In this document: positions 52,686 to 53,254 of the stretch, in pieces
Position numbering within the stretch: position 1 is the first letter of the stretch
Layout of the letters: each line of letters begins with the position of its first letter
Origin: Escherichia coli
GTDB taxonomy: Bacteria > Pseudomonadota > Gammaproteobacteria > Enterobacterales > Enterobacteriaceae
Assembly (NCBI RefSeq): GCF_024223415.1
Contig: NZ_CP100500.1
Length of the DNA: 64,000 bases
Direction: 5' to 3' (one strand)
The notes under the pieces: model-generated
What the model was told of the DNA's origin: nothing
The model's input: the letters and a program-made list of their open reading frames with translations, nothing else
Database searches by the model: none
Program-made: the position numbers and the translations under genes

Positions 52686-52761
52686 GGCCCTTTAGCTCAG
52701 TGGTGAGAGCGAGCGACTCATAATCGCAAGGGCGCTGGTTCAAATTCAGCAAGGGCCACCA
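52686..52761 (+). tRNA. tRNA with CAU anticodon (Met/Ile2 type)
   Basis: Hand-folded cloverleaf: acceptor GGCCCTT/AAGGGCC, D stem GCTC/GAGC, loop CTCATAA, encoded CCA. Confidence 0.7.
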
Positions 52762-52762
52762 A

Positions 52763-52839
52763 CCGCTACTAGCTCATCAGGAAAGAGCGTCAACCCTTTA
52801 AGTTGAGTGCGCTAGGTTCGATTCCCCGCTGGCGGTCCA
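52763..52839 (+). tRNA. tRNA-like gene, possibly degenerate
   Basis: Anticodon stem TCAAC/GTTGA with loop CCTTTAA, TTCGATT T-loop, 3' TCCA; T-stem has two mismatches in my fold. Confidence 0.45.
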
Positions 52840-52841
52840 GC

Positions 52842-52914
52842 GCCGACTTACCTCAGTCGGCAGAACAGTTTAGTTGTAACCATCAGGCCACCACTTCAAT
52901 TCCGGTAGTCGGCA
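52842..52914 (+). tRNA. tRNA-like gene (identity not resolved)
   Basis: Perfect 7-bp acceptor stem GCCGACT/AGTCGGC, TTCAATT T-loop, no encoded CCA; internal arms not confidently folded. Confidence 0.35.
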
Positions 52915-53254
52915 CTAAATTTCCAGGCTCGTGCTCACGGCCTGCTTCATATCCGCGCCAGGTCCGTCGCGATTAAACCACAGGGCTTTTCAGGAGGGGC
53001 CACAGAGAGCGTCACACTGACCATTCCCTGTGGCTTGTGCTGAGATCCGGTCAGTGAAATTGTGCAAAGGGAATCTTCGGGAGCTTTGGGCAGAATGTCA
53101 GTTATTGATGTTGACATCCTCCACACCCTGAAGGTCGGGGTTTTACGGCGCACTGGATAAAATACCTGAACAAACAGCCTCTTCGTGCGGCTTTTTTATA
53201 ACGAGATTCTGACTTGCTGCCGTCCGTAATGTCGGATGGCGGAGGTGAGGGACT

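Follow-up and report, generated by a model that had tools for sequence, protein, structure and literature searches.

In the 64-kb stretch of Escherichia coli DNA that we analyzed (the window), a lambda-like prophage carries a cassette of tRNA genes between its Q gene and its lysis genes. The cassette lacks any cargo gene, and it is very probably in graded decay, from one gene that seems to be usable to one that seems to be dead; we infer expression, charging, and loss of function from the sequences. The cassette, at 52686-52917, consists of three tRNA-like units in tandem, with gaps of just 1 and 2 nt. ARAGORN calls just two tRNAs in the 64 kb, namely the first unit (anticodon CAT) and the second unit (anticodon TTT). 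As the threshold for a canonical tRNA, we used the gathering score of the Rfam tRNA model (RF00005), which is 29 bits. The first two units score 67.8 and 31.2 bits, and the third (52842-52914) scores 19.8 bits (E = 0.29), which is below the threshold. Similarly, NCBI's annotation of the identical tRNAs in strains Ch1 and GF60 includes a tRNA-Ile and a tRNA-Lys and leaves the third unit unannotated. The features of the region are listed in Table 1.

Table 1. Features from the Q gene to the lysis genes, in window coordinates.
Feature	Position	Strand	Basis or remark
Late-gene antiterminator Q gene (upstream boundary)	50380..50802	+	PHROGs phrog_79 'anti-termination protein Q-like', E = 9.4e-52
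Porin gene (accessory, between Q and tRNAs)	50981..52087	-	premature TAA at codon 25
Promoter-like element	52648..52676	+	TTGCGG 52648-52653, 17-nt spacer, TATTAT 52671-52676
tRNA1, ileZ-type tRNA-Ile2 (CAU)	52686..52761	+	ARAGORN, Rfam, RefSeq naming of identical sequence
tRNA2, argN/Arg(UCU)-derived, anticodon UUU ('Lys'), C33	52763..52839	+	ARAGORN Lys(ttt), Rfam
tRNA3, predicted tRNA-Thr(UGU) pseudogene	52842..52917	+	alignment with intact Thr gene at equivalent position
Non-coding spacer without cargo gene	52918..53254	.	alignment; annotation of identical stretches
Holin gene (first of lysis cassette)	53255..53527	+	PHROGs phrog_1350, E = 3.1e-29
Endolysin gene	54185-54718		PHROGs phrog_7, E = 7e-64
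Rz spanin gene	54700-55182		PHROGs phrog_13 Rz-like spanin, E = 2e-71

The interval between Q and the lysis genes

The original prediction was that a tRNA cluster lies downstream of Q, at the site where Stx phages carry tRNA genes, and that about 340 bp without toxin cargo separate it from the holin gene. Both parts hold. Q is upstream and the holin gene is downstream, and the locus is homologous to that of Stx2a_F349 (AP012530.1). The 99%-identical counterpart of the Q gene in strain Ch1 is annotated in RefSeq as "antiterminator Q family protein". Q, the tRNAs, and the holin gene are all on the + strand, which is the late-gene orientation, and the same layout is found in 8 annotated relatives. 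Between the last base of tRNA3 (52917) and the start codon of the holin gene (53255) lie 337 bp, and we found no toxin gene (no stxAB) between the tRNAs and the holin gene. Identical copies of this spacer have no annotated feature in those genomes that were listed, out of the 19 that carry the stretch.

The first ~50 bp of the spacer are homologous to the interval between argO and stxA in Stx2a_F349. We considered whether 52917-52950 might be the remnant of a deleted tRNA-Gly(UCC), and ruled this out because a wider alignment shows that it is the sequence that follows argO and precedes stx in Stx2a_F349 and 2014C-3057. We also rejected three terminator-like hairpins (52924-52944, 53170-53197, and 52540-52560): they are no better than those of shuffled sequences (z = -0.3 to -1.0), and a terminator scan did not report them. 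Rfam gave a weak match to isrK at 53125-53197 (16 bits, E = 0.81), which was treated as chance.

Judging from its sequence, the prophage is lambda-like and mosaic. No complete E. coli genome contains all of it, and the best coverage is 66%. The region at 52400-53300 is 100% identical to E. coli Ch1, and the stretch that is shared with Ch1 is limited to 50380-55384 (99.2% identity by BLAST), which is the 5-kb block of Q, porin, tRNA, and lysis genes. Because Ch1 shares just this block, the frameshifted terminase and integrase genes of Ch1 are not evidence about the window's prophage. In the window itself, the reading frames for terminase, portal, and protease appear open, so there is no clear sign that the entire prophage is defective. 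An ORF at 36672-37985 (- strand) is likely to encode the integrase.

The porin gene, which separates Q from the tRNAs, is disrupted. Its translation reads SSNAA-stop-IYNK, versus SSNAAEIYNK in Ch1, where the gene is 99% identical and encodes an intact porin of 368 amino acids. The premature TAA falls exactly on the signal-peptide cleavage site (between SSNAA and EIYNK). We interpret this nonsense codon as a further sign of erosion of the block in the window's strain.

A similar arrangement is present in DLP12, the cryptic prophage of E. coli K-12 (quuD, nmpC, essD, rrrD, and rzpD). DLP12 also has a Q gene, then a porin gene on the opposite strand, and then a lysis cassette. The porin is inactivated in both prophages, by IS5 in K-12 and by the nonsense codon in the window. 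DLP12 is not known to have tRNA genes at the corresponding site.

Rfam also identified other small RNAs in the window. In the early region of the prophage, isrK (44775-44851, 63.6 bits) adjoins the C4 antisense RNA (44876-44963, 84.3 bits); both are on the + strand and reach gathering level. This pair suggests that there is a P1/P7-style antisense immunity module in a lambda-like prophage. The host sRNAs MicL, C0465, and ES036 are at 29385-29692 (+), 15316-15393 (-), and 33628-33670 (-), which indicates that the prophage adjoins the cutC region.

Condition of the three tRNA genes

The original prediction also described the first tRNA (anticodon CAU) as folding well, and indeed tRNA1 forms a cloverleaf with 20 of 21 pairs. 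The energy of this cloverleaf is -27.1 kcal/mol, versus -29.0 for its intact counterpart, and its Rfam score compares to 72.5 bits for the consensus copy. It is identical to the ileZ consensus at 73 of 76 positions. The three substitutions are specific to its lineage (C43A, U47G, and C61U), and C61U changes the near-universal G53-C61 pair to G53.U61. We sampled 116 copies of the ileZ type: 104 of them have exactly the consensus sequence, and none of the window's three changes occurs in any of the 116. A CAU anticodon could belong to tRNA-Ile2 or to tRNA-Met. Ile2 is supported because the best match to tRNA1 is annotated as tRNA-Ile in all 14 of the records that we sampled across the ranking (in records that lack the prophage copy, the match is a host gene at 87-89.5% identity). 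tRNA1 is probably still functional, and it is likely the only gene in the window's cassette that is fully useful.

tRNA2 is a borderline case. It has 18 of 21 pairs, and its cloverleaf energy is -13.4 kcal/mol, versus -22.3 for an intact gene of its type, which we will call the Lys type. Its Rfam score is just 2.2 bits over the threshold, while its relatives score 40.4-54.5 bits. The two T-stem mismatches that the original prediction described are present (50:64 is U.C and 51:63 is A.C), and there is a third broken pair, which it did not mention (7:66 is C.C). It had also pointed to an atypical anticodon loop. The loop is CCUUUAA, in which C replaces the near-universal U33, so that part stands, but the loop is not peculiar to this copy: C33 and the 51:63 A.C mismatch are common to the entire Lys-type lineage.

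There are five differences between tRNA2 and the Lys-type consensus. The pair states at 7:66 (C.C) and 50:64 (U.C) are absent from the 43 unique relatives that are called as tRNAs. Furthermore, tRNA2 has a change in the T loop (G59U) at a position that is G in 42 of those 43 relatives. By the Rfam gathering score and the ARAGORN call, tRNA2 is a canonical tRNA. It is not an argN-type tRNA-Arg (UCG or UCU): the body is homologous, but the anticodon is TTT with C33. Because tRNA2 passes ARAGORN, the Rfam threshold, and NCBI's annotation pipeline, it may still be processed and charged. Nevertheless, we think that this copy has probably lost some or all of its activity.

The consensus of the Lys type matches the Arg(TCT) type at 69/77 positions and the host's tRNA-Lys at just 47/76. 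This implies that the Lys type arose by changing the anticodon on an Arg body and not by capture of a host gene. The switch to UUU involves U33C and C35U. The second-gene family appears to be constrained as a tRNA, given that 96.2% of pair cells in the called copies are paired and that there are four compensatory pairs. In viral contigs, most copies stay paired. We found the Lys type in 797 of 5,426 complete E. coli genomes, and 278 of the 797 have the consensus sequence. Another 474 are at 95-99% identity (1-3 bases off), and in this band, tRNA annotation was absent from all 5 of the rows that we sampled.

E. coli prophages commonly have degenerate second genes. Among the 120 matches listed from viral contigs, the second gene is Arg(TCG) in about 78 and Lys(TTT) in 10, and about 29 are uncallable due to insertions, deletions, or stem damage. 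One sub-lineage of the second gene has lost the near-universal U8. Another variant, in about 19 of the 120 listed viral contigs, is an argN-type gene whose anticodon arm is replaced by an unrelated insert (…GAAGAGCAGACGACACGATAACAGGGTTGTTGG…). The variant with the GAAGAGCAGACGACACGATAACAGGGTTGTTGG insert is not called as a tRNA and is a widespread unannotated relic in cassettes of the form ileZ-x-argO. In TUM9803, IS421 lies inside the second tRNA gene (130-1500 of the compared locus), and a 63-nt stub is annotated as "tRNA-Arg".

Both ECCNB12-2 and GF60 have two prophages that bear this module. In ECCNB12-2, the copy of the type with a porin matches the window through the first 5 bases of tRNA2, and from there on it matches the Arg(TCT) copy that resides in the same genome. 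The second gene is thus also a mosaic, consistent with a recombination patch. (ECCNB12-2 also has ISKpn26 at the position of the porin, at 282-1262 of the compared locus.)

tRNA3 is in far worse condition. We compared it to the intact Thr gene at the equivalent position in AR_0089 and in phage PhiR47_1 (PV340566.1), and just 61 of 76 positions are identical. Because the intact Thr copies differ from each other at 0-2 bases while tRNA3 has 15 substitutions, it seems that constraint on tRNA3 was released. It keeps 14 of 21 pairs, and its cloverleaf energy is -5.6 kcal/mol, versus -21.5 for the intact gene. The 7 broken pairs include G10-C25, C11-G24, G53-C61, and three of the five pairs of the anticodon stem, and the most stable fold is not a cloverleaf. 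The 3' end is CTA instead of CCA, which agrees with the original prediction that the third unit lacks an encoded CCA. In comparison to its Rfam score, the intact Thr gene scores 73.8 bits and argO scores 70.1 bits. ARAGORN does not call tRNA3 at its default or -ps setting, and tRNA3 is unannotated in those genomes that were listed out of the 19 with this sequence. At an 80% threshold, it is called as "Asn(gtt)" in a shifted register with a 3-bp anticodon stem; a 60% threshold also yields spurious tRNAs in other parts of the region.

The ancestry of tRNA3 is visible in its acceptor stem (GCCGACT/AGTCGGC), which it shares with tRNA-Thr(TGT); it does not align with argO. In a set of 50,697 phage records, it is most similar to intact tRNA-Thr genes (about 81% identity). 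It also keeps a perfect 7-bp acceptor stem and has TGT at the anticodon position. Given the intact homologue at the equivalent position, the uncompensated breaks in the stems, and the loss of conserved bases, we conclude that tRNA3 is a pseudogene of tRNA-Thr(UGU) with a predicted loss of function.

Two of the 15 substitutions convert the former D loop (within 52842-52861) from AGTAGGT to AGTCGGC. The former D loop now has precisely the sequence of the 3' acceptor strand, and it forms a perfect 7-bp hairpin with the 5' acceptor strand. This looks like the template-switch "correction" of a near-palindrome. The dead Thr copy and the spacer are found in 19 complete E. coli genomes and are 100% identical throughout, but were not found in sequenced phages (50,697 phage records). 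The hosts are poultry isolates in 13 of the 15 full-length rows listed.

Overall, the suggestion that these might be decaying copies is correct for tRNA3 and probably correct for tRNA2, while tRNA1 is probably functional. The software recognized neither all three units nor none of them: two are called by both ARAGORN and Rfam and one is not. The proposed alignment with ileZ, argN, and argO is also partly right, as the first two units are homologous to ileZ and argN, but the third derives from tRNA-Thr(UGU) and not from argO.

Related cassettes, expression, and codon supply

The cluster has a match in 3,035 of 5,426 complete E. coli genomes. In Stx2a_F349, the order is ileZ, argN(TCG), argO(TCT), and then stx2AB. 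(In this locus, Rfam also finds the sRNA STnc100, at 4183-4394 and with 158.5 bits, just downstream of stx2B.) We took the gene names ileZ, argN, and argO from the GenBank annotation of AP012530.1. The same naming was reportedly used in the 933W genome paper. The cassette of the Stx phages is like the window's in its site downstream of Q, in its orientation on the late-gene strand, and in its first gene, with ileZ matching at 73 of 76 positions. Also, tRNA2 aligns with argN over its full length, and the sequences that follow the third gene are homologous. The differences are that the window has neither stxAB nor other cargo, that the anticodon of argN is UCG instead of UUU, and that the third gene is argO (Arg, UCU) instead of the apparently dead derivative of tRNA-Thr(UGU). 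The phages 933W, VT2-Sakai, and Min27 have three phage tRNA genes each (PMC4631060).

Another relative is a cassette of non-Stx lambdoid phages and prophages, found in Escherichia phage PhiR47_1 and in E. coli AR_0089. There, Ile(CAT), Lys(TTT), Thr(TGT), and Gly(TCC) are followed by the holin gene. The order and the spacing of the first three genes are as in the window, the second gene has the same loop (CCUUUAA), and holin, endolysin, and Rz genes follow. Compared with this cassette, the window's first, second, and third genes have 3, 5, and 15 substitutions; the Gly gene is absent; and the downstream spacer and the type of holin differ.

The cassette probably has its own promoter upstream of tRNA1. 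A promoter-like element ends 9 nt upstream of tRNA1, and the pattern TTGCxx-17 nt-TATTAT is kept before the first tRNA in loci whose sequences further upstream are unrelated. A generic promoter scan did not report the element at 52648-52676, because its first hexamer matches the consensus at just 3 of 6 positions.

The usual view is that such cassettes supply the tRNAs that read codons the host seldom uses (Ile-AUA, Arg-AGA/AGG, Thr-ACA, and Gly-GGA), and codon usage in the window fits this. Relative to the host genes in the window, the prophage genes use ATA 1.7 times as often, AGA 3.0 times, AGG 4.2 times, ACA 2.0 times, and GGA 1.6 times (all p < 0.01). AAA is used 1.04 times as often. Because AAA is not enriched in the prophage genes, codon supply does not explain a tRNA-Lys(UUU).

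Our proposal is as follows. An intact cassette would normally provide tRNAs that read codons used seldom by the host and more often by phage genes, and its transcription would start at a promoter of its own immediately before tRNA1. In the window, tRNA1 would be a tRNA-Ile2(CAU) that reads AUA and is probably still made and used. tRNA2 would derive from a tRNA-Arg whose anticodon changed to UUU and which then acquired changes that break its stems, so that it is probably weak or inactive. tRNA3 would be the dead remnant of a tRNA-Thr(UGU). The fourth (Gly) gene of the intact cassette is absent from the window, as is any cargo gene.

Alternative readings and significance

The question of why a cassette would carry a tRNA-Lys leads to a different reading of tRNA2, namely that it is a working tRNA-Lys(UUU) that resists nucleases (PrrC, the PARIS nuclease AriB, and RloC), and so is an anti-defence gene rather than a decaying one. 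Phage tRNA-Lys variants do counter PARIS and PrrC170, and AriB recognizes the anticodon stem-loop and cleaves between positions 40 and 41 (PMC11464382, PMC11555353, PMC10264068). In particular, variants from phages rescue from both PARIS and PrrC170 (PMC11464382, PMC11555353). Like the tRNA-Lys of T5, which acts against PARIS (PMC11464382), and the tRNA-Lys of SP15, which acts against PrrC170 (PMC11555353), tRNA2 has a UUU anticodon within a stem-loop that differs from the host's: its stem is TCAAC/GTTGA and its loop is CCUUUAA, versus GTTGA/TCAAT and CUUUUAA. The unenriched AAA codon and the 278 E. coli genomes with the Lys-type consensus are on the same side. Furthermore, UUU arose independently on a Thr body, in the third gene of the cassette (7 viral contigs, versus over 120 with TGT). 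These cassettes are of the form Ile-Lys-Lys-Gly or Ile-Arg(TCT)-Lys-Gly, and Arg(TCT) is still the second gene in 2 of the 7. T5 and SP15 are virulent phages. However, the prophage's gene is a tRNA-Arg with a switched anticodon; the Lys type in prophages is often degenerate, and the window's copy is damaged further. It has three broken pairs and a T-loop change that is not seen in the called relatives. About two thirds of the Lys-type copies in E. coli are off consensus, and those that we sampled lack a tRNA annotation. One sub-lineage has lost the near-universal U8. C33 and the discriminator base U73, which Lys-type copies have, are poor features for a tRNA-Lys that decodes. On balance, it is very unlikely that tRNA2 is a working anti-defence gene. 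We are similarly skeptical of the broader idea, that temperate lambda-like phages of E. coli switch cassette anticodons to UUU and thereby obtain nuclease-resistant substitutes for tRNA-Lys against PrrC, PARIS, and RloC; and the corollary that the window's tRNA2 is a worn copy of such a gene is just as doubtful. (A diverged lineage of second genes with the loop CATTTAA might have been taken as support for selection on UUU loops without U33, but we rejected it: ARAGORN does not call these copies, and their D arms and 3' ends are damaged.)

tRNA3 might instead have been kept as a small RNA or as a tRNA-like processing signal; for example, RNase P could cleave at its 5' end and so free tRNA2 at its 3' end. 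It begins 2 nt past the CCA of tRNA2, and none of the 15 substitutions fall within the 14 positions of the acceptor stem (p ~0.05, post hoc). It is also 100% identical in 19 genomes, but the entire 415-bp module is identical in these genomes, so the identity of tRNA3 is uninformative. The T arm, on which RNase P and other tRNA enzymes rely, is broken; the two substitutions in the former D loop create a hairpin that competes for the 5' acceptor strand; and the fold of tRNA3 is only weakly better than those of shuffled sequences (z = -1.9). We consider retention as a signal or small RNA to be very unlikely. A more sweeping proposal is that all three units encode working phage tRNAs of non-canonical form, which the tools score too low. 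Low scores are frequent among phage tRNAs, tRNA2 passes every tool (ARAGORN, Rfam, and NCBI annotation), and tRNA3 has both its perfect acceptor stem and TGT at the anticodon position. This would require a functional tRNA3 without G53-C61, G10-C25, most of its anticodon stem, or an encoded CCA, with many more changes than separate the intact Thr copies, and with a preferred fold other than the cloverleaf, which makes it extremely unlikely. The explanation that we favor is still a cassette that has decayed to different degrees, with tRNA3 as a predicted pseudogene.

tRNA cassettes downstream of Q have long been known in lambda-like phages and in Stx phages, and the two callable genes were already annotated in RefSeq genomes with the identical sequence. 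If the switches to UUU were selected, then counter-defence by phage tRNAs would extend from large virulent phages to temperate lambda-like phages. Under the reading that we prefer, the window's cassette provides an example of erosion, from apparently intact to borderline to apparently dead within 232 bp. It is also useful to know, for annotation and when counting tRNAs in prophages, that second-gene copies are often relics without annotation.
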